From contig JABSPQ010000224.1 of the NCBI GenBank assembly GCA_013214205.1, forward strand, positions 53,756 to 117,755: a stretch of DNA of 64,000 bases. The letters are read 5' to 3'. The notes beneath the pieces are model-generated. The model saw nothing but the letters and a program-made list of their open reading frames with translations, was not told where the DNA came from and searched no databases. This document shows, piece by piece, positions 1 to 46,617 of the stretch (the first letter of the stretch is position 1; each line of letters begins with the position of its first letter). The DNA comes from Flavobacteriales bacterium (GTDB lineage: Bacteria; Bacteroidota; Bacteroidia; DT-38). The translations under genes and the position numbers were made by a program.

Positions 1-1115
1 TTTATTTCCCCCTGTATTCGGAATTAAAACATTAATTGTATCACCATTTATCGCTGTTACTATTCGGGCGCCATCGGTTAAATTGTAAACGTATGCAGTT
101 CCTGAACCGATAAAGTTTGAAGCCTTTAAATACGATTTACTTTGAGTGGAATTGTCGGGTACAATTAATTCGAACGTTGAACTACCATCTAAAATTGGTT
201 GCATTGGATAAATTATTTCAATGCTTTCAAGGCCATTCCAATCTCTAATTACACCAGTAGCACCAATGGTGGTTAGCGTAAACTCTGTTGTTGGTTCTGT
301 TAAGCCCGACGCAGAAAAAGTAAAGCTGGCATCTACAGACCTGAAACCTCTGTATGTATAACTAGAATCTACATCGGCAAATCGTACCCTTATGTGATGA
401 TCATCAATAGAATCGCCAAATGGATAATAAGTTGAGTTACCCACAAAGGTTATGTTAACCATAGCATTCCCGGCCGTAGTATCCAAATTGCTAATATTAA
501 CAGTCCTTTTCCAGTCGGTTCCAATTCCATAAAACTGATCGAACCAGCCTTCGGCACCATCATAATTGGCGTCGGTTGATTCATAATCCGACCGTTCTCC
601 TTCGTAATACATTCCGTTGTAATTAACTTTATCGCTTCTAAAAACACTGTCGATTGGGGTATAAGAAGCAAAGTCGAGATCGGTTTCCGACGACAATCTT
701 AAATTGTTTGTTGATGTGTTTTGCGTAAGAAAGTAAACCGCTGTATCGTTATATAAACTAAAGTCTTGATCTGCTTGTTGACCAACCTCTTGGTACAAAC
801 AAGTATCTAACCAAGCATCGTTTTTTACACCGTAAAATTCTATGTAATCGTTTACACCAAAAGTGCCATCATTTTCACCTTCAACATGAATTTTAATCTC
901 TTTTCCTTTATTAAAAACCTGAAAATTACGGGGGTCGGTAATTATTAAATTGAATCCTGCATTAAGTAATGTAGTGTAATATATTCGGTATATGCCGTTT
1001 GTAGGAACCTTTACTTTATGATACGTTGAGGCGTAATCTATCCATTCGTTCCCAAAGTTTTGCGCAACAACTTGAACCGATAAAAATGCGAAAATACAAG
1101 TAAGTTTAATCCATT
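1..1115 (-). CDS. N-terminal fragment of a large secreted beta-rich protein; the rest lies beyond the window start. Possibly T9SS-associated (PorU-like peptidase or cargo).
   Basis: Minus-strand frame open to the window edge; ATG at 1115 sits 3 nt after the stop of the upstream FadL/PorV-like gene; signal peptide MKWIKLTCIFAFLSVQVVA|QNFGNEW with Gln at +1, typical of Bacteroidota. Confidence 0.45.
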
Positions 1116-1118
1116 TCA

Positions 1119-2210
1119 CTAAGAGCGCTTATTGATATCGAGTTTTAACGAAAACAAATTAGAATAAGGCGCTACAGAAACACCACCTACATTGGTAAGC
1201 GCGTAATCGATGGTAAGGTTTTTAATTTTTATCCCTACGCCTATGTTTGGTTGCACCTTAGTTTTTACAGCATCTAGTTCTGTGTATTGTTGAATGTGCC
1301 CTACTCCACCTCTTAAAAAGACTAGATTGTGGTAGCCAAATTCTATGCCCATATGTGGCGCCATACTCACTACATTCGATTTAAGTACAGCGTTTCTCAT
1401 TCCATCGAATGTGAAATCCATATCTATTTCTGTAATGATTGTAAAATGTTCTTTGATCTGAAGTTTACGCGAAACGCCCAAAATCATTTTAGGAAGTGTT
1501 ATCTCTAATGAGTTTTCTGGAACTTCGTTGTTTTCTGATACCAAAACTGCTTGCTCTGCATCGGTAAAAGAAAAACTCCACGCATTAAAAGTAGAAGTTA
1601 CATCGCGTGCCATAACAGCAAAATCCCATTTCTTTAATCTGTATTGCGCTCCTGCATCAAGGCCAAAACCCCATGCATTGGCAAAGCTGCCAACTTTACG
1701 GTAAATAACTTTTACGTTGGCACCGTATCGCAATCCTTTGATTTTCGATTTTCTTGCGTAACTAAAAAGAAATGCATTATCCACAGCCGAAAACTCTTTA
1801 ATGTTGTCGTAATTAATATTTCCATCGGCGTCCATTAATTCGAGGGTATTCATAATTCCATCAACGCCTGCCCTTATATACGAGAACCCTATCGCACTGT
1901 TACTATCTAACTTAGAAGCAATACCAGCATAGTCGTATTTAACCATTCCTTGAAAATATTCTGAATGCATTGCTGCTATTTGCACATTGGATTGTACACC
2001 TAGTAAGCCTGCAGGATTCCAATATCCAGCGGTTACATCGTTTACTCTAGCTACATAAGAATTAGACATTCCTAAACTTGAAGCCCCTACTCCTATAGAT
2101 AGGAATTCGTTGCTCATCGTTCTTACCTGTGCAGAACTAGTTGCCGAAGCAGCAAAAATAATAGCTGCTATTAACAGCGTATTTTTAATTTTTAATTTAA
2201 TGTCAGTCAC
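1119..2210 (-). CDS. FadL/PorV-family outer membrane beta-barrel channel
   Basis: Signal peptide with Q at +1; N-terminal hatch-like motif SLGMSNSYVARVNDVTAGYWNPAGL resembles the FadL/PorV NPA motif; alternating beta-strand pattern; C-terminus ends in an aromatic-rich barrel strand. Confidence 0.55.
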   Translation of the reverse strand: MTDIKLKIKNTLLIAAIIFAASATSSAQVRTMSNEFLSIGVGASSLGMSNSYVARVNDVTAGYWNPAGLLGVQSNVQIAAMHSEYFQGMVKYDYAGIASKLDSNSAIGFSYIRAGVDGIMNTLELMDADGNINYDNIKEFSAVDNAFLFSYARKSKIKGLRYGANVKVIYRKVGSFANAWGFGLDAGAQYRLKKWDFAVMARDVTSTFNAWSFSFTDAEQAVLVSENNEVPENSLEITLPKMILGVSRKLQIKEHFTIITEIDMDFTFDGMRNAVLKSNVVSMAPHMGIEFGYHNLVFLRGGVGHIQQYTELDAVKTKVQPNIGVGIKIKNLTIDYALTNVGGVSVAPYSNLFSLKLDINKRS

Positions 2211-3159
2211 CTGATAACCTTGTTTTTAAATCGGATTTAAAGTCGTTCGAAAATTGAATGCTAAACGCTCTACTGCCAATATAGTTTAAATGATTTGCAT
2301 CACAAAAAAACTTCTCGTTATAACACACGTCGTCATCTAAATACGACCTAAAGGTATAACCATTTTTCTTTGCCATTGCATTAATTTTGTCAAAGTGTAT
2401 TCTACGATCCAGAACACTATTCGTTTTCTTAAAATATGTGGGTGAAACGACAAATGTTGCTATAATATTATACTGTTTACAGATTTCTATAATTCCTGCA
2501 AATTGATTGTAAACGTTATCGTTGGGCGCAGTTTTGTAATCTTCATAAATTCTGTCCTTAACTTTTTCTCCTTTTGTAAGCGGAAGTGGTGTAAAACCCC
2601 TAACAAACGACTCATCAAAAGCGGTTACAAAGCCCGTGTAGCCCCGATATGCAGCATACAGATAATTGTCGTTGGTGTGTGCCATACCATAAATGGGATT
2701 GTAGCGATACCAAAAAAATTGAGAATCGAGATCAACAAGTGTGTTGTAAAAAGCTTTGTTTCCTTCTAAATAAGGAAAGTATCGAGGGTATCTGATAATG
2801 GTATCGTTGCGAAAATTATGAAAATCGATATTGATAACCACGTATTTGGGTGCTTCACTGTGCTCCAAGTACGCCAATAATTCGCCTTTAATCATTCTGC
2901 TCGAAGCAGCTTCTAAGCCAATGTTATATGAGCTTAACCCAGTAATTGAATCGAAGATGCCGGGATTGTAATGAGATTCCGTTCGGGAAGAACCGATGAA
3001 CAATAAATCGAAATTATTTTCCTTTAGGAAGATGGTGTTGAGCTTGTCGTATTCGCCAATTTTATTATTCCGTATTCCGATATAAACTACCTCGCGCGCC
3101 AAAACAACCAGCAGAATAGCTACAATAACTTGAATTAGATATGTAATCGGTTTTTTCAA
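2203..3159 (-). CDS. SGNH/DltD/AlgJ-like periplasmic acyl-transfer protein with an N-terminal membrane anchor
   Basis: Single N-terminal TM helix; GSSRT near the N-terminus and DANHL near the C-terminus match the Ser / Asp-x-x-His arrangement of SGNH folds; lies directly downstream of an MBOAT gene, the typical AlgI/AlgJ or DltB/DltD pairing; overlaps the next gene by 8 nt. Confidence 0.5.
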   Translation of the reverse strand: MKKPITYLIQVIVAILLVVLAREVVYIGIRNNKIGEYDKLNTIFLKENNFDLLFIGSSRTESHYNPGIFDSITGLSSYNIGLEAASSRMIKGELLAYLEHSEAPKYVVINIDFHNFRNDTIIRYPRYFPYLEGNKAFYNTLVDLDSQFFWYRYNPIYGMAHTNDNYLYAAYRGYTGFVTAFDESFVRGFTPLPLTKGEKVKDRIYEDYKTAPNDNVYNQFAGIIEICKQYNIIATFVVSPTYFKKTNSVLDRRIHFDKINAMAKKNGYTFRSYLDDDVCYNEKFFCDANHLNYIGSRAFSIQFSNDFKSDLKTRLSGD

Positions 3160-3172
3160 TTTAGTTCATTAA

Positions 3173-4585
3173 TTAAAATTGGAAATAGAAGAATTCGTTT
3201 TCACTAAACTCACCAAAAACAAAAATGCCGACAAATAATGCGATGTATAAAGTAGGACGATAAACAGATGATGTTTTCACATTTAATGAACCAATACCAT
3301 GCTCCTCAATTAATTCTTTCGTAAACAGAAATGCAATCAACAACACATTTACTAGCAACACCAATCCAAACGAATTAATGGTTAATAAATCTGTTTTAAA
3401 CTGAGCTATGTCAATATTAAAAGAGCATATAGATTCATACATCAGCATTAAATCCGACACACTATTTGCTCGAAACGCCATGAGCGAGATGGTATGAAAT
3501 CCGAATAAATAAAACCAACCTAGCCATGGAATCTTAACGTTTTTAAACAAGGTGATCTCCATTATATAAACAACCCCATGCATCAATCCCCAAACCATAA
3601 ATGTCCAGTTGCTACCGTGCCAAACCGAACTAATAATAAATACCAAAAAGATATTGAGGAGCCACCTATTTTTAGAACATCTACTTCCGCCAAGCGAGAT
3701 GTATAAGTATTCTCTAAACCACGTTGTAAGCGATATATGATTGCGTTGCCAAAACTCTACCAGCGATTTAGAAAGTAAGGGCCTACGCCAATTCAACATT
3801 AAATCGAAGCCGAAAAGCTTAGCGGTTCCAATAGCTATATCCGAATATCCAGAGAAATCGCAATAAACCTGAACAACGAAAAACACACCTGCTAAGGCAT
3901 GAGAAATTGCGCCAAACTCTGAAACATCAGCAAAAATAGGATCGACAAATAAAGCCAACCGATCGGCAATTACTACCTTCTTAAAAAAGCCCCATAGTAT
4001 TAATCGGAATGCCGGAATCCATGTTTCTATGTCAATCGATTTGTCGCGGTGAATTTGAGGCATTAAGTTTTTAAACCTTTCTACCGGCCCCGCAACCAAT
4101 TGCGGAAAGAAGGAAACAAACAAGGCAAATTTACCCAGATGACGTTCCATTTCTACTTCTTTCCGATATACATCTATCGTATAACTCATTGATTGAAAAG
4201 TATAGAAAGAGATGCCTATCGGAAGGATCATTGCTTCTATTATATCAAATTGTTGATCGGAAACAGCACTTACTGCATCTAATGCCGCATTGCCGAAAAA
4301 AGCCAAATATTTATATGTAAAAAACACTCCAAGATTGGTGATGCTGCTTAACGTTACCCACCTTTTCCGAATGTTATCTTTTTTAGAACTGGCCAATTGT
4401 AAGCCACACCAATAATCTACCAAGGTAGAACCCATCAGCAACAAACCATAAATTGGTTCCCAGCTCATGTAGAAATAGTAGCTGGCTGCCAAGAGCAAAA
4501 TCCATCTCAACTGATCTTTAAGCAACCAATAGGCCAGCAGCACAATCGGAAGAAAATAGAGGAAATGAATTGAGTTAAAAAGCAT
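3173..4585 (-). CDS. MBOAT family membrane-bound O-acyltransferase (AlgI/DltB-like)
   Basis: Polytopic membrane protein of 470 aa with the conserved MBOAT histidine motif (SSVWHGSNW...GLMHG). Confidence 0.85.
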   Translation of the reverse strand: MLFNSIHFLYFLPIVLLAYWLLKDQLRWILLLAASYYFYMSWEPIYGLLLMGSTLVDYWCGLQLASSKKDNIRKRWVTLSSITNLGVFFTYKYLAFFGNAALDAVSAVSDQQFDIIEAMILPIGISFYTFQSMSYTIDVYRKEVEMERHLGKFALFVSFFPQLVAGPVERFKNLMPQIHRDKSIDIETWIPAFRLILWGFFKKVVIADRLALFVDPIFADVSEFGAISHALAGVFFVVQVYCDFSGYSDIAIGTAKLFGFDLMLNWRRPLLSKSLVEFWQRNHISLTTWFREYLYISLGGSRCSKNRWLLNIFLVFIISSVWHGSNWTFMVWGLMHGVVYIMEITLFKNVKIPWLGWFYLFGFHTISLMAFRANSVSDLMLMYESICSFNIDIAQFKTDLLTINSFGLVLLVNVLLIAFLFTKELIEEHGIGSLNVKTSSVYRPTLYIALFVGIFVFGEFSENEFFYFQF

Positions 4586-4656
4586 AGATCCTATTTGGCA
4601 AAGCTTGAATGATAAAAAGTGTTCTTTGGTATCGCATGAACAAAACTAAAATTACT

Positions 4657-4664
4657 TAAGTTTG
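4657..4664 (+). promoter_or_regulatory. Bacteroidota-type -7 promoter box TAAGTTTG upstream of pssA
   Basis: Perfect match to TAnnTTTG about 23 nt upstream of the start codon. Confidence 0.4.
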
Positions 4665-4686
4665 TTAAGGGAACAACATCGACGAA

Positions 4687-5409
4687 TTGAAAAATCAAAT
4701 ACCAAATCTTATAACACTCGGCAACCTCTTCTGTGGCTGCATCGGAATTGTTTTTGCATTCCAAAGTCATTTAGAATATTGCGCTGCTATGATTGGCTTG
4801 GCAGCTGTTTTCGACTTTTTTGATGGAGCTTCGGCCAGGTTATTAAAGGTGAGTTCGGAAATGGGCAAGGAGTTGGATTCTCTTTCCGACGTGGTAAGTT
4901 TTGGCGTGTTACCTGCAATGATTTTGTACAAAATGTTTCAACTAGCCATTGCCGAACAGGATTTATTCCCTCAAGAAACTGCTTATTTCGTATTTATTAT
5001 TGCGTGCGCATCGTCTTACCGATTAGCAAAATTCAACTTGGATGATCGGCAAACTACTTCGTTTATAGGACTTCCCACGCCAGCCAATGCTATTTTGATT
5101 GGTTCGTTCCCATTAATTTTAAACGCCGATATTGGAAATATTAACCAAATACTATTAAGTCCATATTTCTTGATATCTATCACGATAATGTTGTCTTTTT
5201 TATTAATATGCGAGTTACCTTTGTTTTCTTTAAAGTTCAACAACTTTAAATGGAACGATAATAAAGTTAGGTACTTGTTTGTGCTTATATCGGTAGGAAT
5301 GTTTGGTGGGTTAAAATATGTTGCCGATCAATATTTAGCAGTTCCATTAATTATACTGTTGTACGTTTTAATGTCATTAATAAATAATTTTACGAAGAAT
5401 GAAGTTTAG
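4687..5409 (+). CDS. pssA: CDP-diacylglycerol--serine O-phosphatidyltransferase (CDP-alcohol phosphatidyltransferase family)
   Basis: Motif DFFDGASARL...GKELDSLSDVVSFGVLPA matches D-G-x2-A-R...G-x3-D-x3-D; apparent TTG start (no in-frame ATG upstream). Confidence 0.8.
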   Translation: MKNQIPNLITLGNLFCGCIGIVFAFQSHLEYCAAMIGLAAVFDFFDGASARLLKVSSEMGKELDSLSDVVSFGVLPAMILYKMFQLAIAEQDLFPQETAYFVFIIACASSYRLAKFNLDDRQTTSFIGLPTPANAILIGSFPLILNADIGNINQILLSPYFLISITIMLSFLLICELPLFSLKFNNFKWNDNKVRYLFVLISVGMFGGLKYVADQYLAVPLIILLYVLMSLINNFTKNEV

Positions 5410-5651: not shown

Positions 5652-6377
5652 CTAGTCTCTCAATTTAAAGTTCTCGCCCAAGTACACTTTACGTACTTGT
5701 TCGTCTTCCGATAATTCCTTTGCAGTTCCTGCTTTCAGGATTTTACCTTCAAACAACAAATAGGCACGATCAGTGATCTCTAATGTTTCGTGAACATTGT
5801 GATCGGTGATTAAAACGCCGATGTTGTTATTTTTTAGCCTGCTTACTATAGCTTGAATGTCTTCTATGGCAATTGGATCAACTCCTGCAAACGGTTCATC
5901 TAACAAAATAAACTTAGGATCGTTGGCCAAAGCTCTGGCAATTTCGCATCGTCTTCTTTCTCCACCAGAAAGCAAGTCTCCTCTGCTGGTTCTTACATGT
6001 TGAAGTCCGAATTCATCAATTAACTTTTCTAATCTTATTGCTTGCTCTTTCTTAGAAAGCTTAGTCATTTCCAGAATAATCTTGATGTTATCTTCAATGC
6101 TTAATTTCCTAAAAATCGACGGTTCTTGTGCCAAATAGCCAATTCCTCTTTGAGACCTTTGGTACATTGCTCTAGACGTAATGTCTTCGTTATCCAAGAA
6201 AATACCTCCCTTTTCGGGCTTTATTAAACCAACCATCATATAGAATGTGGTGGTTTTTCCAGCACCGTTTGGCCCAAGTAACCCAACGATTTCACCTTGA
6301 TTAACTTCTATGGAAACTTCATTAACCACAGCACGACCTTTGTATGATTTAACTAAGTTTCTTGTATATAATTTCAT
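5652..6377 (-). CDS. lptB: LPS export ABC transporter ATP-binding protein LptB
   Basis: Walker [12 protein letters not shown], signature LSGGERRR, 241 aa, and LptB-type C-terminal extension. Confidence 0.9.
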
Positions 6378-6385
6378 CGTTTATT

Positions 6386-8905
6386 CTAAAAATTGAATGC
6401 AAAGTTTCCACGGATGGCAAAGTTAGTAACTCCTACACCATCTTCAAATTCTAAATCACCAACATTGTGATCTCGGTAGGTTAATCGCCAAATTGCATCT
6501 ATTCTAATTATTTTAAATATGTTCTCGATGCCAACACCAGCTTCCATGTATGGCTTTTTAGCAAGATTTACGCCAGAATTTGGGAACAACAAAATATCCT
6601 GATGCTTGCTATCCAACTTGCCATAAACACCTTTTGCATTCACTACCGATCTCCATTTCAACTTTCTTAAAGCAGGAACTTTATTCAAAATAAACCCTTC
6701 GAAATGATGCGCCACTGCCAGTGAAACATACTCATCGCTGATAAACTCAAAATAATTCATCAAGTTATAAGACGATTTATCGTAAAAGTAGCTCTCGTTT
6801 CCAGGATGCATTTCCAAAAGCGGATAAGGAACTCTACCCAATACCTTTCCATATTCTGCATTGAATTTGGTATTACCCACTGCACCCAATCTTATTTTAT
6901 CGGAAACATTAAATCTGAATTTATGGTATTGATACTTGCTGTTCAACAAATCTTTTATACCCACCGTGTAATCAAATTGGATAATTGGCGATGTGGTCCC
7001 TAAACTGATCCGATTGAACTCGCCAGAAACAAACTTCTCTTTGTGGGCAAATCGAATGTACATAGACAATTCAGACGTCCTCAGCTCATCTACATCCGAA
7101 AGTATATCTTCGTCGTAGAAGTTATATACCAAATCCCCTAACGGATTAAAAATTCTTTGCGCCATCGTAAGCCGGGTAGAGAAACCTTCCAGCCATTCTA
7201 TTTCATAGGCAAACTTGTACTCCTCAATGTTTGTAAGCTTATAATTTCTTGAAGTTCTAAAAATAGAGGTGAACGCATTATCTGTTTGCATTCCGTTGTT
7301 GCTCATTCCTAGCTGTTCCACGTCATTTTTATAGTGGATATCAATGGAGTTTCGCGGTTTTTTAGAGAGAAAATAAAGCACCCCACCACCGTATTTAACC
7401 TTGGTATCCCTAAATCCATATGCGGTATATGCGTCTATCATTGTTCGAGTACTAAACTCATTACTTGTTCTTACGCCTATTTTAGTTCTAACTCCCTCCA
7501 CGTCATTATAACTCACCAAACTATGATATGGTCCTATTTCGAACTTACCAAACTCTTTATAGCCCGTCATTACAGTAAATATTAACCCCTCGTACACCTT
7601 AAATGCCTTTAATGTCTTAAGGGTATCAATCATGTCGTAAATTCCTTGTTGGCGTTCATTTAGCTCTTCATGACGAGCCTCATCCCAAAATTCATCACCT
7701 CGATCACTCGAACCTTCTTCGACAATAATTTCATCTCCAATTTTGTAGAATTCGTCGGATCTTTTTTTATTGACTTTGATATTCTCATACGTGGTTGTTT
7801 TCCTACCAATAAAGCCAGTAACCCTTTTGGCCTTTTTCGAGATGTTAAAATCCATCATTATGTTATCCCGGCCCAACATCCAACCTTGATTATCTACCAA
7901 TACATACTCCTGTTCTATCCTAACATCGTTTACAAAATTCACATTCGCATCTTCTGTAATTTGCAACGTTGCCTTCTTAATTGCCCACGACGAATCGGCG
8001 ATCCACATATCACCTTCAAAAGTTAATTCCTGCTTTCTTTTAGCAACAAAATGAATTTTATAACACCACAAGTCGCCCAAACTGGTACTGTCGGTTAGAT
8101 AATATTTGTAAAAAAGCTTTCCATTATCCGCCGCTGGACTTATAAAGTTTTTGCCAAAAAGTAAAATGTAATTCGAATAGATATTAAAATGTTGGTACAT
8201 ATCGCCCATAAACTGCGCAACACTTTCATTCTCTGTACCAGCAATTCGAGTTCCTTTAATTATTTCCCGCTTAAGTTCTGGATTTTTCTGATAATACATT
8301 TCCGAAAGAGATTCTATCAAAAAGAACGGCAGGTACGGTTTTCCATCGATTGTATCTAAGTTTTGAAGCATGAATTTAAAAGGCTTGAGCAACTTATTAT
8401 TCATCATTTTCTCGGGCAGGTTATACATATCGAACTCTACCTTGTTGTACACTTCGTACTCGTAATAGTCGAACTTGCTCTTATCGTTAGCCTCTTTATT
8501 CTCCACCATTCCCTCTATTATGGCTAACGCAGGGTTAACTCCTGCAATAATTTGAACAACATCTAACTTAATGCTAGATTCTTTAAGCGGTATATTAATA
8601 ACCTGAACAACATTAGATTTTACAGCAACACTTTTAGGCAAATAGCCGATATAGGAAATTCTTAAAGAATCTACAGACAAGGTTGATTTGAGACTATAGT
8701 ACCCGTTAATATCCGACATGGTACCAACGGTTGTACCCCTAAATTGAATATTGGCAAACGGAACTCCGTCTCCACTTATGGAATCTGTTATTTTTCCCGA
8801 TACTGCGGTTTCTTGCCCGAAAGCAAAAGAAGAAACCAATAGGAATACTATTAAGAGCAGTTTATTAAAAAAAATGGTTTTGGTTATATGATCGCTCAGC
8901 TGCAT
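6386..8905 (-). CDS. Outer membrane protein with N-terminal carboxypeptidase-regulatory-like domain and C-terminal beta-barrel (DUF5686-like)
   Basis: Signal peptide with Q at +1; CarboxypepD_reg-like N-terminus (VSGKITDSISGDGVPFANIQFRGTTVGTMSDINGYYSL); long beta-rich body ending ...GNFAFNF. Confidence 0.55.
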   Translation of the reverse strand: MQLSDHITKTIFFNKLLLIVFLLVSSFAFGQETAVSGKITDSISGDGVPFANIQFRGTTVGTMSDINGYYSLKSTLSVDSLRISYIGYLPKSVAVKSNVVQVINIPLKESSIKLDVVQIIAGVNPALAIIEGMVENKEANDKSKFDYYEYEVYNKVEFDMYNLPEKMMNNKLLKPFKFMLQNLDTIDGKPYLPFFLIESLSEMYYQKNPELKREIIKGTRIAGTENESVAQFMGDMYQHFNIYSNYILLFGKNFISPAADNGKLFYKYYLTDSTSLGDLWCYKIHFVAKRKQELTFEGDMWIADSSWAIKKATLQITEDANVNFVNDVRIEQEYVLVDNQGWMLGRDNIMMDFNISKKAKRVTGFIGRKTTTYENIKVNKKRSDEFYKIGDEIIVEEGSSDRGDEFWDEARHEELNERQQGIYDMIDTLKTLKAFKVYEGLIFTVMTGYKEFGKFEIGPYHSLVSYNDVEGVRTKIGVRTSNEFSTRTMIDAYTAYGFRDTKVKYGGGVLYFLSKKPRNSIDIHYKNDVEQLGMSNNGMQTDNAFTSIFRTSRNYKLTNIEEYKFAYEIEWLEGFSTRLTMAQRIFNPLGDLVYNFYDEDILSDVDELRTSELSMYIRFAHKEKFVSGEFNRISLGTTSPIIQFDYTVGIKDLLNSKYQYHKFRFNVSDKIRLGAVGNTKFNAEYGKVLGRVPYPLLEMHPGNESYFYDKSSYNLMNYFEFISDEYVSLAVAHHFEGFILNKVPALRKLKWRSVVNAKGVYGKLDSKHQDILLFPNSGVNLAKKPYMEAGVGIENIFKIIRIDAIWRLTYRDHNVGDLEFEDGVGVTNFAIRGNFAFNF

Positions 8906-8913
8906 TATTCCTA

Positions 8914-9735
8914 TTATTCTTTTGCGTCTCTATTCTTTATTACAATTTTAGAAATGTAAATACTGATCTCGTACAGAACCACTAATGGGAGCGCCACTAA
9001 AATTTGACTTACAATGTCTGGCGGAGTAATGATTGCCGACAGTACTAAAGTGACTACGATGGAGTGCTTTCTGTACTTCCGCATTACTGTTGGCGTAACA
9101 ATACCCACTTTAGAAAGGAAGTAAACAATGATGGGCAATTCGAAAATTAAACCCGATGCCAACGGAATGGTGGTTACAATACTAATGTACGACCCTATAG
9201 TAAATGTATTTGCTATCTGATCACTTACTTGGTAGTTGCCCAAGAAGTTAACTGAAAGCGGCACTATAATGAAATAGCCGAACATTACTCCAGTAAAAAA
9301 CAACAAGGTGCCAATAATGATAAAGCCCGAACTGTATTTCTTTTCGCTGTTGTGCAATGCAGGTTTTACAAAACCCCAAATTTCGAATAGGATATATGGG
9401 AATGCTATTACCAAACCAGCTTTAAAAGACACCATCATGTGGGTAATAAACTGGCCCGTCATAGCCGTACTAATTATCTCGAAAGGCAACTCTGTAATGC
9501 ACAATGCCTCTGTTAAATCATATTTATGAACCAATGCACACAGTAAGCGATAGGTTAAAAAGTCGCCATTTTTAGGGCCAAACAATATTGTATCGAACAT
9601 AAAGCCCGAAAACGCAAAGGCTACCATGCCTACGCCAATTATTGCTATTACAGATCTTAGAATTACCCACCTTAATGTTTCTAAGTGGTCCATGAAAGAC
9701 ATTTCGTCTTCGCCAGATTCATCGTTTTCGCTCAT
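8914..9735 (-). CDS. tatC: Twin-arginine translocase subunit TatC
   Basis: MSFMDHLETLRWVILRS N-terminal motif and six predicted TM segments. Confidence 0.85.
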   Translation of the reverse strand: MSENDESGEDEMSFMDHLETLRWVILRSVIAIIGVGMVAFAFSGFMFDTILFGPKNGDFLTYRLLCALVHKYDLTEALCITELPFEIISTAMTGQFITHMMVSFKAGLVIAFPYILFEIWGFVKPALHNSEKKYSSGFIIIGTLLFFTGVMFGYFIIVPLSVNFLGNYQVSDQIANTFTIGSYISIVTTIPLASGLIFELPIIVYFLSKVGIVTPTVMRKYRKHSIVVTLVLSAIITPPDIVSQILVALPLVVLYEISIYISKIVIKNRDAKE

Positions 9736-9758
9736 ACTTTCTCTTTTCGATATCTGAC

Positions 9759-10721
9759 TTAAATTATATTCTGTTTGAGTAAATCATGTATATGTATGAT
9801 TCCCAAATACTTTTCACCTTCAACAACAACCAGTTGCGAAATATTATTCTCCTCCATCATTTTCAACCCTTCTGTTGCCAATCGTTCTGCTTCTATTTTT
9901 TTTGGTTGTGCATGCATAATGTCTTGCGCAACTAATTTTTCATCGTAACCCGAATTTTGCAACATTCTTCTTAAATCTCCATCAGTAATAATTCCCATCA
10001 ACTCATTATTCTCCACAACTGCAGTTGCTCCAAGCCTTTTGCTCGAAATTTCCATAATTACCGACTTTAAATCTGCCGTTGAGCCAACTACTGGCACTTC
10101 ATTTTCTTTACATACCTCTTTAATAGTAAGGAATAATTTCCGTCCTAATGTACCTCCTGGGTGAAACTTCGCAAAGTCCTCGCTCGAAAACCCTCGATAA
10201 TCTAATAAACATACAGCCAATGCATCCGATAAGGCCAATTGTGCCGAAGTACTTGTTGTTGGCGCCAAATTATTCGGACAAGCTTCTTTTTCAACAAATG
10301 TATTTAAAACAAAGTCTGAATTTTGACCTAAATACGAATCAGGATTACCAACAATTGCAATCATGATGTTTTTCATCGATTTAATGTAGGGTACTAACAC
10401 CCTAATTTCGTCTGTATTTCCACTTTTGGAGATACATATTACAATATCATCCTTTTGAATTATACCAAGATCACCATGAATTGCCTCTGCGGCATGCATA
10501 AATATGGCTGGTGAACCGGTAGAATTTAAAGTGGAAACAAATTTATTGGCAATATTCGCACTTTTCCCAATTCCAGTGACTACTACCCTACCCTTAGATT
10601 CATGGATAGCTTTTACGCTGGAAACGAAATTGTTATCTAAAAAAGATTTTAGATTTGAAATAGCTTTCGCCTCTAAATCCAATGTTGATTTAGCAAGTTC
10701 AATTATTTTATCTTCTGACAT
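9759..10721 (-). CDS. kdsD: Arabinose-5-phosphate isomerase (KpsF/GutQ family; SIS plus tandem CBS domains)
   Basis: SIS motif VVVTGIGKSANIANKF...ISKSGNT followed by CBS pairs; 320 aa. Confidence 0.85.
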   Translation of the reverse strand: MSEDKIIELAKSTLDLEAKAISNLKSFLDNNFVSSVKAIHESKGRVVVTGIGKSANIANKFVSTLNSTGSPAIFMHAAEAIHGDLGIIQKDDIVICISKSGNTDEIRVLVPYIKSMKNIMIAIVGNPDSYLGQNSDFVLNTFVEKEACPNNLAPTTSTSAQLALSDALAVCLLDYRGFSSEDFAKFHPGGTLGRKLFLTIKEVCKENEVPVVGSTADLKSVIMEISSKRLGATAVVENNELMGIITDGDLRRMLQNSGYDEKLVAQDIMHAQPKKIEAERLATEGLKMMEENNISQLVVVEGEKYLGIIHIHDLLKQNII

Positions 10722-13192: not shown

Positions 13193-15172
13193 ATGCTCAA
13201 ACAGACTAAAAACACAATTTTAGCAACAATATTATTGTTGTTAAGCACAACGATGCTTCATGCGCAAACTGGCTTTAAATTTTCAGGCTGGCAAAATATA
13301 GCAGAAATCGGAGATGATCCTTCTATTCAAATTACCGGTAATGCTATTTCACTTGAAGCATGGATCTTCCCCACTTCTTTTAATCCAGACATAGATCTTT
13401 CCAATATTATAAATAAAGAACAAAATGTACCAGATAGAGGATTTATGTTCAGAATTGGTGGTGCAGGACATTTAAAACTTGTATTAGGCGACAACACATG
13501 GAATAACTATGAAACAGATAGCGTGCTTGAATTAAATGTATGGCAACATGTTGCTGCTACTTACGATGGCGAATATGTAAGAATGTTTGTTGATGGTGTT
13601 GTTGTTGACTCCACAGCAGCTTCGTTTGATATTGCGCCTTCGACTAACGTGCTTCGGATTGGTAATTCAGAAAATGGCTACAACAAGCATACTGGATACA
13701 TTGATGAGGTTAGAATCTGGAACGTGGCAAGAACTCAAGAAGAAATCATTGAGGACATGAACAGACATTATTGTACGCTTCCTCCTATAGGATTACAAGC
13801 TTACTATACTTTTGATGAAGGAACCGGGACAACGATTACAGATCTTTCAGGAAATGGAAATCATGGAGTCCTGCTAAGCGTGTTCGAAAGTAACTGGGTT
13901 GAAGGAGTTGCACTTGCAAAAGGAACTACAGGCAGCGTTACAGAAACTATTTGTGAAGAAAGTTACGAAGGCCCAAATGGCAAAACTTGGACTGACACTG
14001 ATATTTACATTGAAACTTTAACCAACCAATATGGTTGTGACAGTGTAGTTACTTACGACTTAACGTTTGAAACTAATCCGGTAATAGAATTAGGTGAAGA
14101 TCAAGATTTGTGTGATGGCGAAATGGCTATGCTTGACGCAGAAAACACAGGCGCAGATTACCTTTGGTCGGATGGTTCTACAGAACAAACGTTAGAAGTT
14201 TCTTCTGACAACATGTATTCTGTTACGGCTACAAACGCAGGTGCATGTACAGCTACGAGCGAAGTGATTATTTCTTATACAATGTATCCTATTGTTGATT
14301 TAGGACCACATCAAGAATTATGCGATGGTGAAATGACAATGCTTTACGCTGACAACTCAGGTGCCACTTATTTATGGTCGGATGGTTCTACTGAGCAAAC
14401 TTTAGAAGTTTATTTCGACGATATGTATTTAGTTACTGTTACTAATGGTGGGATATGTTCAAGTACAGGAGAGGTAATAGTATCTTATACTACTGCCCCA
14501 TACCTCGAATTAGGAAACGAAATACTTCTTTGTAATGGCGAAATGGTTACGTTAGATGCTGAGAATTCAGGTGCATCTTATTTGTGGTCGGATGGATCTA
14601 CAGATCGAACTTTAGAAGTTTATGATCAAGGCACTTATAATGTTATTGTTACTTACGGAGGAATGTGTTCAACAACTGATGGAATTTCAATTGATGCGCA
14701 TACAACAGATACAACAGTAAGTATAGTATCTGATATAACCTTCATGGCCGAATATGAGAGTCCTGCTACATTCGAATGGATTAATTGTAGCGATATGACA
14801 ACTGTTGGAACAGAACAAAGCTTTACAGCTATGGAAAATGGATCGTTTGCAGTTGTTATTACAGATGACTTTTACGGTTGTCCTAATACATCATCATGCT
14901 ACCAAGTTACCAACGTAGGAATTAATGAATCTGCTCAAACAAGATTGAGTGTTTATCCAAACCCTACGAGTAGTAGAATTAACGTTAACGTTGGCACTAA
15001 AGGCAACTTTAAGGTTAGGGTTACTAATGTGCGAGGACAAGTGGTACGAAGAGCAAGTGCTAAAAACACATCGCAGTATCAAATGGATGTTTCCGATTTA
15101 GGAAAAGGGATCTATTTCATTCATGTTGATGGCCGCGATAGATCGGATGTAATAAAGTTCGTTAAGAATTAA
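13193..15172 (+). CDS. T9SS-secreted adhesin-like protein: signal peptide, LamG/ConA-like lectin domain, three tandem 70-aa Cys-containing repeats, type-A T9SS C-terminal sorting domain
   Basis: Q at +1 after signal peptide; LamG_3-like W.HVAATYDG...RMFVDG; repeats ...LG...LC.GEM..L.A.N.GA.YLWSDGST..TLEV...; C-terminus LSVYPNPTSSRINVNV...GKGIYFIHVDG matches the Por secretion tail. Confidence 0.8.
   Translation: MLKQTKNTILATILLLLSTTMLHAQTGFKFSGWQNIAEIGDDPSIQITGNAISLEAWIFPTSFNPDIDLSNIINKEQNVPDRGFMFRIGGAGHLKLVLGDNTWNNYETDSVLELNVWQHVAATYDGEYVRMFVDGVVVDSTAASFDIAPSTNVLRIGNSENGYNKHTGYIDEVRIWNVARTQEEIIEDMNRHYCTLPPIGLQAYYTFDEGTGTTITDLSGNGNHGVLLSVFESNWVEGVALAKGTTGSVTETICEESYEGPNGKTWTDTDIYIETLTNQYGCDSVVTYDLTFETNPVIELGEDQDLCDGEMAMLDAENTGADYLWSDGSTEQTLEVSSDNMYSVTATNAGACTATSEVIISYTMYPIVDLGPHQELCDGEMTMLYADNSGATYLWSDGSTEQTLEVYFDDMYLVTVTNGGICSSTGEVIVSYTTAPYLELGNEILLCNGEMVTLDAENSGASYLWSDGSTDRTLEVYDQGTYNVIVTYGGMCSTTDGISIDAHTTDTTVSIVSDITFMAEYESPATFEWINCSDMTTVGTEQSFTAMENGSFAVVITDDFYGCPNTSSCYQVTNVGINESAQTRLSVYPNPTSSRINVNVGTKGNFKVRVTNVRGQVVRRASAKNTSQYQMDVSDLGKGIYFIHVDGRDRSDVIKFVKN
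14078..14707 (+). repeat. Three tandem 210-bp (70-aa) intragenic repeats inside the adhesin gene
   Basis: Repeat units start at 14078, 14288 and 14498 (ccg gta ata gaa / cct att gtt gat / cca tac ctc gaa); the conserved block ttatggtcggatggttctac is recognisable in all three copies, exactly in copies 1-2 and with 2 substitutions in copy 3; degenerate half-copies flank them. Confidence 0.8.
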
Positions 15173-15591: not shown

Positions 15592-16683
15592 ATGTGGAAA
15601 GTTGAACTACAGGAAATCAATTTCCAGTTAAACGAAAAAAATTGGTCAACATTAGATTCACTTAATAATGATGTAATAAATCAAAGAATAATCACTTCTT
15701 CCCATAAAAGATATGTATCCGCTATCTTTTCTGAAAATGACCAAAAATCAAAAATAAAAATAAGACTCAAGGGAGATAAAATTGATCATTACAACACAAC
15801 TCCACCTTCCTATCGTGTAAAAACTAAAAAGGGCTTTACAATACTAGGAGCAAACAAACTTTCTTTCCAAGCCTTAAAGTGTAGAAACTTCCCGATGGAA
15901 TGGATGTACCATAAACTTCTTGCTTCCGAAAATGTTTTGTCCTTAAAAATGGATATTGTTAAGCTAAAGGTCAACAATGTAGAGGTAATTACAACTTACG
16001 AAGAACATTTCACACATTATTTAACAGACCGATTCAATAGGCCTAGAGGTACAATTATTTGTATTTCTGAAGAAATATTTTGGGACAAACATAAAGGGTG
16101 GGCAACCTTAAAAAATGAAGAAAAAATATATTTAAACTCCCCTATTAGGATACTGCATGATGGCAGACCAGATAAATCTTCAGAAACCAACAACGGTGCT
16201 TCACTTTTAGATGACTTTAGAAATCAAAAGAAAACGGTACAAGAGGTATTCGAAATTGAAAAGATCGCCATGTTCTTTGCAATGTCTGACCTTTGTAACA
16301 CCAACCATTCTATAAGATGGCACAATGCCAGATACTATTATAACCCTGTATCGGAAAGATTAGAGCCAGTTGCCTTTGATGCTTCAATTAGAAATTTGAA
16401 AGACCATTTTAATACCGATGACAAAGACATTAAAACGTTTTCAATTGGGAAATTCTTCTCAAATGACGTTTTCCTAGCTGAATATTTCAAATGTTTAGAA
16501 AAGGTCTCTTCAGAAAAATTCATCGATTCATTTCTAATAAATCACAAAAATGAAATTGATAATATGTATAGCAAAACGTACAAAATAGAATTTTTCTATA
16601 ATAGAAGCTCCAGTTTTCTGTATCAAAATGCCGAATGGATAAGAGCTAACATTAAGAGTTATAAAAAGAAATTATTAGATTAA
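15592..16683 (+). CDS. CotH-like atypical kinase family protein (divergent); N-terminus possibly disrupted
   Basis: HNARYYYNPVSERLEPVAFDAS resembles the CotH HN.Y.Y.d..g.w..iPWD.D motif; very AT/Lys/Asn-rich; no signal peptide in frame, but a 24-codon ORF with a hydrophobic N-terminus (15491..15565) lies just upstream in another frame. Confidence 0.45.
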   Translation: MWKVELQEINFQLNEKNWSTLDSLNNDVINQRIITSSHKRYVSAIFSENDQKSKIKIRLKGDKIDHYNTTPPSYRVKTKKGFTILGANKLSFQALKCRNFPMEWMYHKLLASENVLSLKMDIVKLKVNNVEVITTYEEHFTHYLTDRFNRPRGTIICISEEIFWDKHKGWATLKNEEKIYLNSPIRILHDGRPDKSSETNNGASLLDDFRNQKKTVQEVFEIEKIAMFFAMSDLCNTNHSIRWHNARYYYNPVSERLEPVAFDASIRNLKDHFNTDDKDIKTFSIGKFFSNDVFLAEYFKCLEKVSSEKFIDSFLINHKNEIDNMYSKTYKIEFFYNRSSSFLYQNAEWIRANIKSYKKKLLD

Positions 16684-16754
16684 TTATCTAACATTTAAGC
16701 TCTCCTTTCTTTGTTAAATATTGAATCAATTCAGGATATTGTAAATTCGTATTC

Positions 16755-18182
16755 GTGAAATCGCATTTAATTATTTCGGCAAGCATTCTAATTTCTATAA
16801 TAGCTGCGTATTGTTCTGTTGGGTATCACCACTTCGATGAACATTTTCAAATTTTAGAATTTGCAGGGACCAAACTAGGGCTTACCGATCCAAACAATTT
16901 GCCTTGGGAATTTAATGAGCAGATGCGTTCGGCCATTATGCCTGCCATCGCAGTAGTATTTTACAAGGTATCTGCATTCTTCGGTGGAGAAAACCCATTT
17001 AGAGTTGCACTTTACTTACGGATACTATCAGCTGTGTTGTCATTTGTTTCCATGTACACAATTTACGAAGCCTACAAAAAGGAATTTAGACATGTATACC
17101 TCGAAAAAGCATTTTTGTTCCTCTCCTTCTTTCTTTGGTTTACAATTTATAACCACGTTCGATTTTCTCCAGAAAACTGGTCAGGTGTTATTTTTGTTAT
17201 AGCATTTGTACTGTTAATTAAAAAAGGAGATAAGCCTCATACAACCTTTTTAAAAATCGGCCTCCTACTCGGTTTAGCTTTCATTATTCGCTACCAAGTA
17301 GGCTTAATGATTGGTGGACTTATTGGCTGGTTGATTTTAATTAAAAAAGAAAAACTTTTGTCTGTTTTTAACCTGATAATTGGAGGTGTGATTGTTTTTT
17401 TATTAGGCATTGCAATAGACTATTGGTATTATGGAGAATTAACAGTTACGGCTTGGAACTATCTCGATTTAAACATTATCCAAAATAAAGTATCTAATTT
17501 CGGAACCGCTCCTTGGTGGTTTTATATTACCGCTGCCATAGAACATGGCATCCCTCCCTTTAGCTTACTCTATTTAGCAAGCACCTTGCTCTTGATTATT
17601 TTCAAACCCAAAGACCTACTCACTTGGGTATTGGTTCCGTTTCTTCTGATCCATTTTGTAATTGGTCATAAGGAATTAAGGTTTTTGTTTCCAATGATTG
17701 GTTTTCTTCCAGGAATTATTGTGAAAAGCATTGAGCTAATTCAGAATAAGTGGAATATTGAATTAACTCGAAATAAAATTTTCAAACTATTTATGGTTGG
17801 GTTTTGGGTAACCAATTTTGCTTTATTGGCTGTTGTAACTTTAAGGCCTGCCGACAATCAGGTGCCATTGTATAAAACAATCTACAGCAATTACGAACAG
17901 CCAATAACTTTGTATTGCATTGAAGACAACCCATACTACCGAGTTTTATACATTTCTTTTTACAAGCGAGAAAACCTCACTATTAAAACAGTTCAATCTG
18001 TAAACGATATTCCTATCCAAGGAAGGTCTTATTTAATAGTGACAAAAAACTCAGATGAAGCTAAAGAAATCCCCAAAGAAGCAAATTTGATTTACTCTAG
18101 TTTTCCAGAATGGATAAAAATGTTCAATTTTAACGATTGGCAAGAACGAACAAACGAGTGGTTGCTTTACGAGGTAATTTAA
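16755..18182 (+). CDS. GT22-like (ALG9/PIG-B family) polyprenyl-phosphate-mannose-dependent mannosyltransferase, GT-C fold membrane protein
   Basis: N-terminal YHHFDEHFQILEFA ... LPWEF ... MRSAIMP resembles the HPDEhFQ / TWEf / LRS motifs of the Alg9-like family; about 11 TM segments. Confidence 0.55.
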   Translation: MKSHLIISASILISIIAAYCSVGYHHFDEHFQILEFAGTKLGLTDPNNLPWEFNEQMRSAIMPAIAVVFYKVSAFFGGENPFRVALYLRILSAVLSFVSMYTIYEAYKKEFRHVYLEKAFLFLSFFLWFTIYNHVRFSPENWSGVIFVIAFVLLIKKGDKPHTTFLKIGLLLGLAFIIRYQVGLMIGGLIGWLILIKKEKLLSVFNLIIGGVIVFLLGIAIDYWYYGELTVTAWNYLDLNIIQNKVSNFGTAPWWFYITAAIEHGIPPFSLLYLASTLLLIIFKPKDLLTWVLVPFLLIHFVIGHKELRFLFPMIGFLPGIIVKSIELIQNKWNIELTRNKIFKLFMVGFWVTNFALLAVVTLRPADNQVPLYKTIYSNYEQPITLYCIEDNPYYRVLYISFYKRENLTIKTVQSVNDIPIQGRSYLIVTKNSDEAKEIPKEANLIYSSFPEWIKMFNFNDWQERTNEWLLYEVI

Positions 18183-45272: not shown

Positions 45273-45327
45273 ACTATACTTTTGAATAAACACTTATTTC
45301 TAAAAACTTTTGCGATCCAATATAGCT

Positions 45328-46617
45328 ATGCTTATTAGCCTCTTATTGATCATTATTTTGTTAGCATGCTCAGCCTTGGTTTCAAGTGCTGAAGTGGCCT
45401 ACTTCTCATTGTCGACTACAGATATGCAAGAGTTGGAAAACAATAAAGGCAGAACATCTAAACTAGCACTACAACTGCTCGAATTGCCCAAAAAGTTATT
45501 GGCGACAATATTAATTGCCAACAACTTTGTGAATGTAAGTATCATTATTCTGTCAACTTTTTTAACGAAAAATCTTATTGATGCAGAAGCATATCCTTTT
45601 TTGTTTGGGTTTGTTGAATTAGTTGTAGTTACCTTTTTGCTATTATTAATTGGCGAGGTAATCCCGAAGGTATATGCCACCAAGTATGCGCTAAAAACAA
45701 CAACTTTAATGGCGTATCCTCTTAAAACTCTTCGGGGAGTATTTTCACCTCTCAGCTCTTTATTGATTTCATCAACTAGTTTTATTGATAAACGAATCAA
45801 AAAGAAAAACACTGGCATTTCTGCCGACGACCTTTCGAATGCACTCGAACTTACTGCTGCAGATGCAACTTTAAACGACGAGCAAAAGCTTCTTAAAGGT
45901 GTTGTAAAATTTGGTCGCACGAGTGTAAGGCAAGTAATGACACCTCGAACGAATGTCAAAGCATTTGCAGACAATTTAGGATTTAAAGAAATTCTGGAGA
46001 AAGCAACTAGCTTAGGCTTTTCTAGGATACCTATATATAAGGAATCGCTGGACCACGTGCATGGTGTTCTATATCTAAAGGACTTACTCCCTTATCTAGA
46101 TCAGCAAAACGATTTTAAATGGTTAACGCTTCTTCGCAAACCATTTTTTGTTCCAGAAAACAAAATGATCAACTCTCTACTTCAAGAATTTCAGGAGAAA
46201 AAAATCCACCTTGCCGTGGTGGTCGACGAATATGGAGGAACATCGGGAGTAGTTTCATTAGAAGATGTTATTGAAGAAATTGTTGGAGAAATAATTGATG
46301 AAAACGACGACGACGAAATCATTTATTCTAAACTCGATGATCAGAATTTTATATTTGAAGGCAAAACTGCTTTAAACGATATTTATAGAATTCTTGATAT
46401 TGACGACGAAGAGTTCGAGAAGTCCAAAGGTGAATCGGATAGCATAGCAGGTTTCATTATCGAATTGCACGGAAAAATTCCAAAGAAAAACGAACGAATC
46501 AACTTTAACGATTACACTTTTACAATTGAATCGGCCGACAAAAAACGAATCAATAGAATTAAAGTGACTATTAAGAAGACTAGTAATAACAATCCTGAGT
46601 TATCTAAATCCAAATGA
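45328..46617 (+). CDS. gldE: Gliding motility-associated membrane protein GldE (CNNM/CorC/HlyC family: DUF21, CBS pair, CorC_HlyC)
   Basis: DUF21 TM region, then CBS domains and a C-terminal transporter-associated domain; conserved synteny mutY-ssb-gldE-gldD as in Flavobacterium johnsoniae; start taken at ATG 45328. Confidence 0.75.
   Translation: MLISLLLIIILLACSALVSSAEVAYFSLSTTDMQELENNKGRTSKLALQLLELPKKLLATILIANNFVNVSIIILSTFLTKNLIDAEAYPFLFGFVELVVVTFLLLLIGEVIPKVYATKYALKTTTLMAYPLKTLRGVFSPLSSLLISSTSFIDKRIKKKNTGISADDLSNALELTAADATLNDEQKLLKGVVKFGRTSVRQVMTPRTNVKAFADNLGFKEILEKATSLGFSRIPIYKESLDHVHGVLYLKDLLPYLDQQNDFKWLTLLRKPFFVPENKMINSLLQEFQEKKIHLAVVVDEYGGTSGVVSLEDVIEEIVGEIIDENDDDEIIYSKLDDQNFIFEGKTALNDIYRILDIDDEEFEKSKGESDSIAGFIIELHGKIPKKNERINFNDYTFTIESADKKRINRIKVTIKKTSNNNPELSKSK

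Follow-up and report, generated by a model that had tools for sequence, protein, structure and literature searches.

We combine profile searches, structure prediction and a survey of gene neighbourhoods to study four adjacent minus-strand genes at the edge of a 64,000-nt stretch of DNA from a Flavobacteriales bacterium (assembly GCA_013214205.1, contig JABSPQ010000224.1, positions 53,756-117,755 of the forward strand; the whole of this stretch is called the window below). The genes encode an MBOAT acyltransferase, an SGNH protein resembling DltD, a PorV-type barrel (PorV2) and the N-terminus of a PorU-like sortase (PorU2). Together they make up a type IX secretion system (T9SS) attachment-type pair with an acyl-transfer accessory module, and the operon suggests, without proving, that the surface anchor or the cargo of PorV2/PorU2 sorting is acylated.

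The anchoring of T9SS cargo is poorly understood beyond Porphyromonas and Tannerella. In the canonical system PorV shuttles cargo that carries a C-terminal sorting domain (CTD) and tethers PorU, which removes the CTD. MBOAT/SGNH pairs, for their part, carry acyl groups over the inner membrane onto extracytoplasmic polymers.

The four-gene locus and its proteins

The first gene of the operon encodes the MBOAT protein, an inner-membrane acyltransferase of 470 aa (3173..4585, minus strand, as are all four). It is followed after 13 nt by the SGNH/DltD-like gene (2203..3159, 318 aa), whose product is predicted to be an N-terminally membrane-anchored acyl transferase or esterase and which overlaps by 8 nt the gene for the PorV2 barrel (1119..2210, 363 aa including the signal peptide). 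The last gene, PorU2, is cut at the window edge, and the window holds its N-terminal 373 aa (1..1119) with the signal peptide VKWIKLTCIFAFLSVQVVAQ. On our reading of the open reading frames (ORFs), PorU2 starts at a GTG (1119..1117) that has one base in common with the TAG stop of the barrel gene, a spacing of -1 nt. An earlier note on this DNA had given the MBOAT, SGNH and barrel coordinates and the spacings between them, which the ORF listing bears out, and had let the truncated gene begin at 1115; that start we ruled out, the frame being riddled with stops. In the closest ortholog (L098) PorU2 likewise begins with a GTG that overlaps the PorV2 stop.

GC content is uniform over the region (0.32-0.39), and the terminator-like sites found across the genes (6, against 4.3 expected by chance) all lie within coding sequence. 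Upstream of the MBOAT gene, in the 101-nt divergent intergenic region 4586..4686, a candidate -7 box TAGTTTTG (4641..4648, minus strand), identified as a consensus match only, lies 63 nt before the ATG and fits TAnnTTTG, which we take to be the Bacteroidota -7 promoter box. It is the one intergenic match to this motif on the minus strand of 1..4800, the other three being inside coding sequence. A scan for sigma-70 promoters was uninformative (17 sites against 20.9 expected), this being the wrong promoter type for Bacteroidota. Judged from the sequence, the four genes look like a single transcription unit and would be co-transcribed.

The barrel belongs to the PorV-type branch of the FadL/PorV-like barrels, the broader class named in the earlier note. 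It scores 482.7 bits against the NCBIfam model for 'putative type IX sorting system protein PorV2' (NF052325, cutoff 325) and 92.4 bits against the PorV/PorQ family model PorV_fam (NF033709, cutoff 90). It falls below the canonical models for PorV (NF033710, 32.8 bits vs cutoff 250) and PorQ (NF033711, 55 vs 220), and it has no Pfam FadL-family or PorP/SprF match at E<=0.01. When the PorV2 family profile is compared with the PDB, Flavobacterium johnsoniae PorV is the sole match. Structure points the same way: the AlphaFold2 model of the barrel (pLDDT 69) finds PorV as its best Foldseek match (8gl6_F and 6h3i_F, TM-scores 0.63 and 0.58, top E 8e-13), with FadL, TodX and TbuX in a second tier at a TM-score of about 0.5. 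We therefore rejected membership of the barrel in the FadL/Toluene_X family, for which there is no Pfam match and over which PorV ranks first structurally. A 100%-identical PorV2 protein (P0001) is annotated publicly as 332 aa from Met32, which loses the signal peptide; the longer ORF from the GTG at 2210 keeps it and agrees with ortholog lengths of 359-362 aa.

The truncated gene, which the earlier note had described as a large secreted protein, is the N-terminus of a PorU-like C25 sortase. With 238.6 bits, the fragment matches 'putative T9SS sortase PorU2' (NF052324) between positions 7 and 361 of the 879-position model; that the score stays under the cutoff of 450 is due to the truncation at the window edge. 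Searching with the fragment for homologs yielded only 9 partial proteins, and the C25 dyad region of the window's own PorU2 falls beyond base 1; orthologs directly downstream of PorV2 in other loci, including that of the 71%-identical relative L098, therefore stood in for the missing C-terminal part of roughly 1,300 residues. These orthologs are 1,660-1,700 aa long, score 667-790 bits against the same model, and carry a Peptidase_C25 domain at about residues 410-770 (Pfam, 1e-49 to 1e-58) as well as CARDB and ILEI-like domains. Across 12 of them, conservation of the His (FFGHAS) and Cys (ANSCYSG) of the C25 dyad is 90% or higher, and both residues line up with the dyad region of Porphyromonas gingivalis PorU (6ZA2), which is also the only protein that the ortholog profile matches. 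Five of seven full-length orthologs have a marginal match to the T9SS type A CTD (TIGR04183) at the extreme C-terminus (17.1-24.7 bits, cutoff 23), and those of L032 and L001 have none at the thresholds used.

The barrel and the sortase resemble the canonical pair of P. gingivalis PorU (6ZA2) and F. johnsoniae PorV (6H3I/8GL6) in that a barrel of the PorV/PorQ family is encoded next to a multidomain C25 partner that has a signal peptide and, in orthologs, a His/Cys dyad and a marginal T9SS-type CTD. They differ from it in several respects. The canonical PorV cutoff is missed, as is that for PorU (181-262 bits vs 420); PorU2 is about 500 aa longer, with the extra CARDB and ILEI-like domains; the genes run in the order PorV2 then PorU2; and the genes around the pair include no PorQ or PorZ partner.

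The MBOAT assignment of the earlier note stands, with a match to Pfam PF03062 at 6.6e-23 and 82 bits (gathering threshold 27). Against the NCBIfam model for DltB (TIGR04091) the protein scores 121.8 bits, below the cutoff of 375. Its nearest solved structures are of DltB (6BUG and 8JEM, E about 2e-27), and both His motifs of DltB align in the MBOAT protein, RWHMSL with RNHISL and FWHG with VWHG.

The assignment of the SGNH/DltD-like protein is upheld by structure prediction and Foldseek. Its AlphaFold2 model (pLDDT 95.3) has a helix at residues 2-30 followed by an alpha/beta domain, and its top Foldseek matches are DltD (6o93, 6pfx and 3bma), followed by GDSL/SGNH hydrolases. Across 29 homologs there is no variation at G56, S58, R59, N79 or H290, and conservation of D287 is 90% or higher; the conserved blocks GSSR (with S58), N79/G81/G84, D287 and H290 place the family in the SGNH superfamily. 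The protein therefore has a conserved Ser58/Asp287/His290 triad in what is predicted to be a DltD-like fold, and the worry that the triad might prove to be lacking on alignment does not apply. Profile scores are low: 16.4 bits against Pfam DltD (PF04914, cutoff 22.7) for the window protein and, across the 29 family members, matches only at E<=1 to DUF1574 (PF07611, 13/29) and DltD (8/29). No match to the PatB (DUF459) or AlgX families was found in Pfam for the protein or its homologs.

Compared with the DltB-DltD system of teichoic acid D-alanylation, the pair is alike in pairing an MBOAT gene with a following gene for an N-terminally anchored extracytoplasmic SGNH protein, in its nearest solved structures, and in the conserved His residues and the Ser/Asp/His triad. 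It differs in its sub-threshold scores, in the lack of dltA, dltC and dltX, and in the host, which is Gram-negative and without teichoic acid. On the DltB score and the missing partner genes we rejected membership in a DltABCD pathway.

All four parts therefore come from known superfamilies (PorV/PorQ, C25/PorU-like, MBOAT and SGNH), and none meets the equivalog cutoffs for PorV, PorU, DltB or DltD. Our literature search found no paper on PorV2/PorU2, on a link between MBOAT proteins and the T9SS, or on the four-gene arrangement. The earlier note's remark that the arrangement is not a described system holds to that extent; it needs qualifying in that PorV2 and PorU2 are already named as 'putative' in NCBIfam, so that part of the arrangement is not unrecognised.

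Linkage of the acyltransferase pair to PorV2

We consider the linkage from both sides, beginning with the SGNH protein. Close homologs are few: they number 28 by word index, and an exhaustive search with a profile puts roughly 25 representatives above about 280 bits; a scan for metagenome loci with a narrow alignment gave 9 loci. For 17 of the 19 close homologs that are informative, PorV2 comes directly next, and the genomic contexts in which it does so number at least three. The order SGNH then PorV2-PorU2 is found in six genome loci (L008, L032, L033, L051, L057 and L065), in seven of the eight informative metagenome loci (L081, L082 and L085-L089) and on four further contigs (L090, L091, L093 and L094). 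In L098, the closest relative, the contig opens with the 3' end of an SGNH homolog and continues with PorV2-PorU2.

The two exceptions are L084 and P0146. L084 (37..7782) has a lone SGNH homolog, without MBOAT or PorV2, in a T9SS-rich stretch that reads, in order, a weak-CTD protein whose length is at least 1,285 aa, a PorV/PorQ barrel of a third type (139.6 bits against PorV_fam), a greA-like gene, a HIT-like gene, the SGNH gene and a GldN paralog; the greA-like and HIT-family ORFs were labelled by eye.

The four-gene module occurs with pssA/purS flanks and, in L085 and L091, with RF-1/Amidase_3/PorP_SprF flanks. L082, in a third genomic context, keeps SGNH-PorV2-PorU2 without an MBOAT gene. 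Across 17 related loci the gap between MBOAT and SGNH is about -14 to +20 nt (outliers at 50 and 302), that between SGNH and PorV2 is mostly 13-47 nt (124-170 in three loci), and that between PorV2 and PorU2 is -10 to +68 nt. This operon-like spacing persists down to about 30% SGNH identity.

Seen from PorV2, the picture is much broader. The PorV2 family has at least 7,961 database matches, and we surveyed the best 80 of at least 597 confirmed PorV2 stretches in species-representative genomes (L001-L080). PorU2 follows PorV2 in 68 of these 80 loci, and the flanks retrieved for the remaining 12 contain no PorU2. As a core, this second PorV/PorU pair is widespread: hundreds of Bacteroidota species conserve it. 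Directly upstream of PorV2, most loci have a divergent pssA, then purS, lptB, a DUF5686-like gene and tatC. Since pssA usually adjoins PorV2, the MBOAT+SGNH pair occupies a variable slot between the two. Of the 67 loci whose upstream flank exceeds 2.5 kb, 4 show this arrangement (L008, L032, L051 and L065); L033 and L057, which are cut by contig ends, also carry the pair. The co-occurrence of MBOAT, SGNH and barrel genes in Bacteroidota, for which the earlier note had suggested a check, is a conserved linkage and a strong one when viewed from the SGNH side, but it is a feature of a subclade only, reaching about 6-9% of the sampled PorV2 loci.

What else fills the slot? Matches to the AT3 acyltransferase family (PF01757) occur five times in 1.4 Mb of loci, and all five directly adjoin PorV2 (L011, L037, L058, L062 and L080). 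GT-C-like polytopic proteins, some with a GT2, fill the slot in 8 loci (L001-3, L010, L012, L023, L045 and L063); the label 'GT-C-like' reflects a polytopic sequence judged by eye, mutual similarity and one Pfam PMT_2 match (L012), and the slot proteins of L010, L001, L023/L063 and L045 have no Pfam or NCBIfam name. Methyltransferase, TPR and transglutaminase-like genes are found there as well. The slot of L001-L003 (in L001, 5506..9832) is taken by a four-gene cluster for a polytopic protein of 478 aa, a GT-C-like one of 462 aa, a GT2 and a small product that resembles methyltransferases, and in L001 a convergent PMT_2 glycosyltransferase gene lies just after PorU2 (16012..17547), so that glycan-building genes flank PorV2/PorU2 on both sides.

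The SGNH protein also has a far larger sister subfamily, with 1,094 representatives at E<=1e-30, which occurs without PorV2. A sister-subfamily pair adjoins rplU/rpmA in L092; another, in L097, has genes for a PMT_2 protein and a T9SS cargo beside it; and a sister-subfamily SGNH protein is present in a metagenome-assembled genome of Deltaproteobacteria. In L096 (428..5963) the genes ahead of the MBOAT-SGNH pair encode FkbH_N, a carrier protein of the PP-binding type, a MaoC dehydratase and a short-chain reductase, a cassette that suggests a Dlt-like acyl relay in which a carrier protein supplies a group other than acetyl.

Proposed function and competing explanations

To frame a proposal we draw on two published precedents: PorU joins cargo to an amine of a modified sugar of anionic lipopolysaccharide (A-LPS) (PMC10202324), and in Bacillus cereus the polysaccharide to which S-layer proteins are anchored is acetylated by an MBOAT/SGNH pair, PatA1/PatB1 (PMC9487903). 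On these grounds we propose that the MBOAT and SGNH enzymes acylate a glycolipid anchor or a cargo glycan handled by PorV2/PorU2, a proposal whose chances we put at about even. By homology to PorV/PorU, PorV2 would hold PorU2 at the cell surface via its retained CTD and present CTD-bearing cargo, and PorU2 would cut off the CTD and transpeptidate the new C-terminus of the cargo onto an outer-membrane glycolipid amine. In one subclade the MBOAT protein and the periplasmic DltD-like SGNH enzyme would have been recruited into the slot upstream of PorV2. The former would carry an acyl group over the inner membrane, in the manner of PatA/PatB, AlgI/AlgJ or DltB/DltD, and the latter would place it on an envelope glycoconjugate, either the anchor glycolipid or the cargo glycan of PorV2/PorU2. 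Given that the operon has no gene for a carrier protein or a ligase, the acyl group would most likely be acetyl, and sorting by PorU2 may depend on the modification. In keeping with the earlier note, we infer that the modification would be handled at the outer membrane, where it could mark an acyl-modified T9SS cargo or anchor. We prefer a functional coupling on four grounds: the genes are packed as in an operon, the linkage is reciprocal, the module moves as one unit, and in other loci the slot holds acyltransferase and glycosyltransferase genes that are analogous.

Among known systems, PatA/PatB, which O-acetylates peptidoglycan, PatA1/PatB1, and AlgI/AlgJ/AlgX, which O-acetylates alginate, share with the pair the combination of MBOAT translocation and SGNH transfer to a polymer. 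The SGNH partner here is DltD/DUF1574-like, and in this it differs from the DUF459, DHHW or AlgX partners of PatA/PatB and AlgI/AlgJ/AlgX. The closest functional analogy is the O-acetylation of a secondary cell wall polysaccharide by PatA1/PatB1 (PMC9487903), in which the polymer modified is an S-layer anchor. If the proposal is true, the principle of acylating the polymer that anchors surface proteins extends to Gram-negative sortase-like secretion. The PorV2 slot, being repeatedly filled by envelope-glycan- or acyl-modifying enzymes, offers candidate genes for identifying the acceptor.

Several observations weigh against a coupling of the pair to sorting and fit instead with coincidental neighbours, an explanation under which the pair O-acetylates an unrelated polymer (peptidoglycan, capsule or exopolysaccharide) after one insertion into a permissive slot and vertical inheritance. 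We consider this possible, if somewhat unlikely. The pair is present in only about 6-9% of the sampled PorV2 loci, and missing in more than 90%; since most PorV2/PorU2 loci do without it, it cannot be required for the core function, and it is an accessory to the PorV2/PorU2 system and not an integral part. The slot takes many types of insert, among them the TPR, transglutaminase-like and methyltransferase genes, and four of the five AT3 genes lie on the strand opposite to PorV2, with one on the same strand. In a neighbour-joining tree of PorV2 (crude and unbootstrapped, its deep nodes unsupported) most carriers of MBOAT+SGNH fall in one part, as fits a single ancestral insertion; there they are interspersed with loci whose slot holds something else, and the window PorV2 is placed elsewhere. 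Homologous MBOAT-SGNH pairs, namely those of the sister subfamily, occur without PorV2. Lastly, the run of tatC, DUF5686-like, lptB, purS, pssA, PorV2, PorU2 and lnt is syntenic across the clade, the unrelated housekeeping genes around the locus being equally conserved in their order, and this clade-wide synteny of functionally unrelated genes makes adjacency by descent a real alternative.

Coincidence accounts less readily for the rest of the evidence. The four genes stay together despite differing flanks (L085 and L091 as against the pssA context), the SGNH gene of L082 remains with PorV2 even without MBOAT, and the operon-like spacing is retained while SGNH identity drops to about 30%. An unrelated acyltransferase family, AT3, is found exclusively beside PorV2 in other lineages. 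The absence of PatB (DUF459) and AlgX family matches also speaks against it.

A second alternative starts from the resemblance to Dlt proteins. Here the module, acting in the periplasm, would attach an amino acid by an ester bond to the anchor glycolipid or lipid, giving a free amine as nucleophile for PorU2, an amine that would stand in for the seryl/glycyl group on the linking sugar of P. gingivalis and Tannerella forsythia. DltB and DltD are indeed the nearest solved relatives of the two proteins, PorU needs an amine acceptor (PMC10202324), and the sister pair of L096 is encoded with a PP-binding carrier protein, which means that carrier-dependent acyl donors do occur in this family. We nonetheless hold this alternative to be distinctly unlikely: no DltA-like ligase, DltC-like carrier or DltX is encoded in or next to the operon in the window and 17 related loci, the scores of both proteins fall far short of the cutoffs for DltB and DltD, and, as most PorU2 loci are without such a module, the nucleophile must normally come from elsewhere.

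A bolder version, which we would call a long shot, combines these elements. PorV2/PorU2 would be a second, independent sorting pathway for surface proteins in Bacteroidota whose acceptor is set by the genes in the slot (MBOAT+DltD-like, AT3 or GT-C, always beside pssA). In the lineage of the window the pair would add an ester-linked acyl or aminoacyl group to a glycolipid or amine phospholipid, and PorU2 would owe to this group either its transpeptidation nucleophile or the tuning of that nucleophile.

Finally, that the barrel is a FadL-type channel moving a hydrophobic acyl substrate for the MBOAT and SGNH enzymes, unrelated to the T9SS, is very improbable: PorV-family barrels do have the FadL fold, with FadL, TodX and TbuX as second-tier matches, but the PorV2 equivalog match, the lack of a Pfam FadL-family match, the rank of PorV at the top of both structural and profile matches, and the PorU-like sortase that follows the barrel in 68 of 80 loci, most without MBOAT, all stand against it, and the picture of a generic fatty-acid transporter whose relatives have no linkage to MBOAT or SGNH genes does not apply.

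Flanking genes and the rest of the window

The divergent neighbour of the operon is pssA (4687..5409, plus strand), which encodes CDP-diacylglycerol-serine O-phosphatidyltransferase and is given here as context. Its product scores 111.2 bits against TIGR00473 (cutoff 107), matches Pfam CDP-OH_P_transf, and weakly matches the NCBIfam model 'protein sorting system archaetidylserine synthase' (59.6 bits, cutoff 200). In L090 there are two tandem pssA-like genes. The position of pssA next to PorV2 could be pure synteny or a hint of an amine-lipid acceptor. A comparison lies in the archaeosortase ArtA, which occurs with PssA/PssD anchor-lipid synthesis (NCBIfam NF038086): in both cases the gene of a sorting peptidase adjoins one of the phosphatidylserine-synthase type, pssA being the commonest PorV2 neighbour. 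The likeness has its limits, as the score of the pssA here is that of an ordinary bacterial PssA, the gene is probably a housekeeping one, the peptidase families are unrelated, and the adjacency may be synteny.

Downstream of PorU2 we find no conserved gene, the position being taken by lnt, gltX, PMT_2, DUF4421, a response regulator or gatC. The lnt gene (apolipoprotein N-acyltransferase, confirmed with Pfam) follows PorU2 in L032, L090 and L094. In L007 and L014, where PorU2 is missing, PorV2 is directly followed by a gene judged lnt-like by eye only.

Beside the operon lies a block of envelope-biogenesis genes (5652..10721) whose synteny is conserved in many PorV2 loci. It comprises lptB (labelled from its ABC ATPase sequence by eye and from conserved synteny), a gene whose 839-aa product is SusC-like in its N-terminal domain (DUF5686-like, by eye), tatC (by eye) and kdsD, the last with a match of 311 bits to the NCBIfam KpsF/GutQ family. 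Further into the window, 12 kb from the operon, a plus-strand gene (13193..15172) encodes a 659-aa T9SS cargo protein with a type A CTD (TIGR04183, 48.4 bits) and a weakly TafC-like N-terminal region. GldE is encoded at 45310..46617 on the plus strand (TIGR03520, 552.6 bits); the organism has gliding- and T9SS-associated genes.

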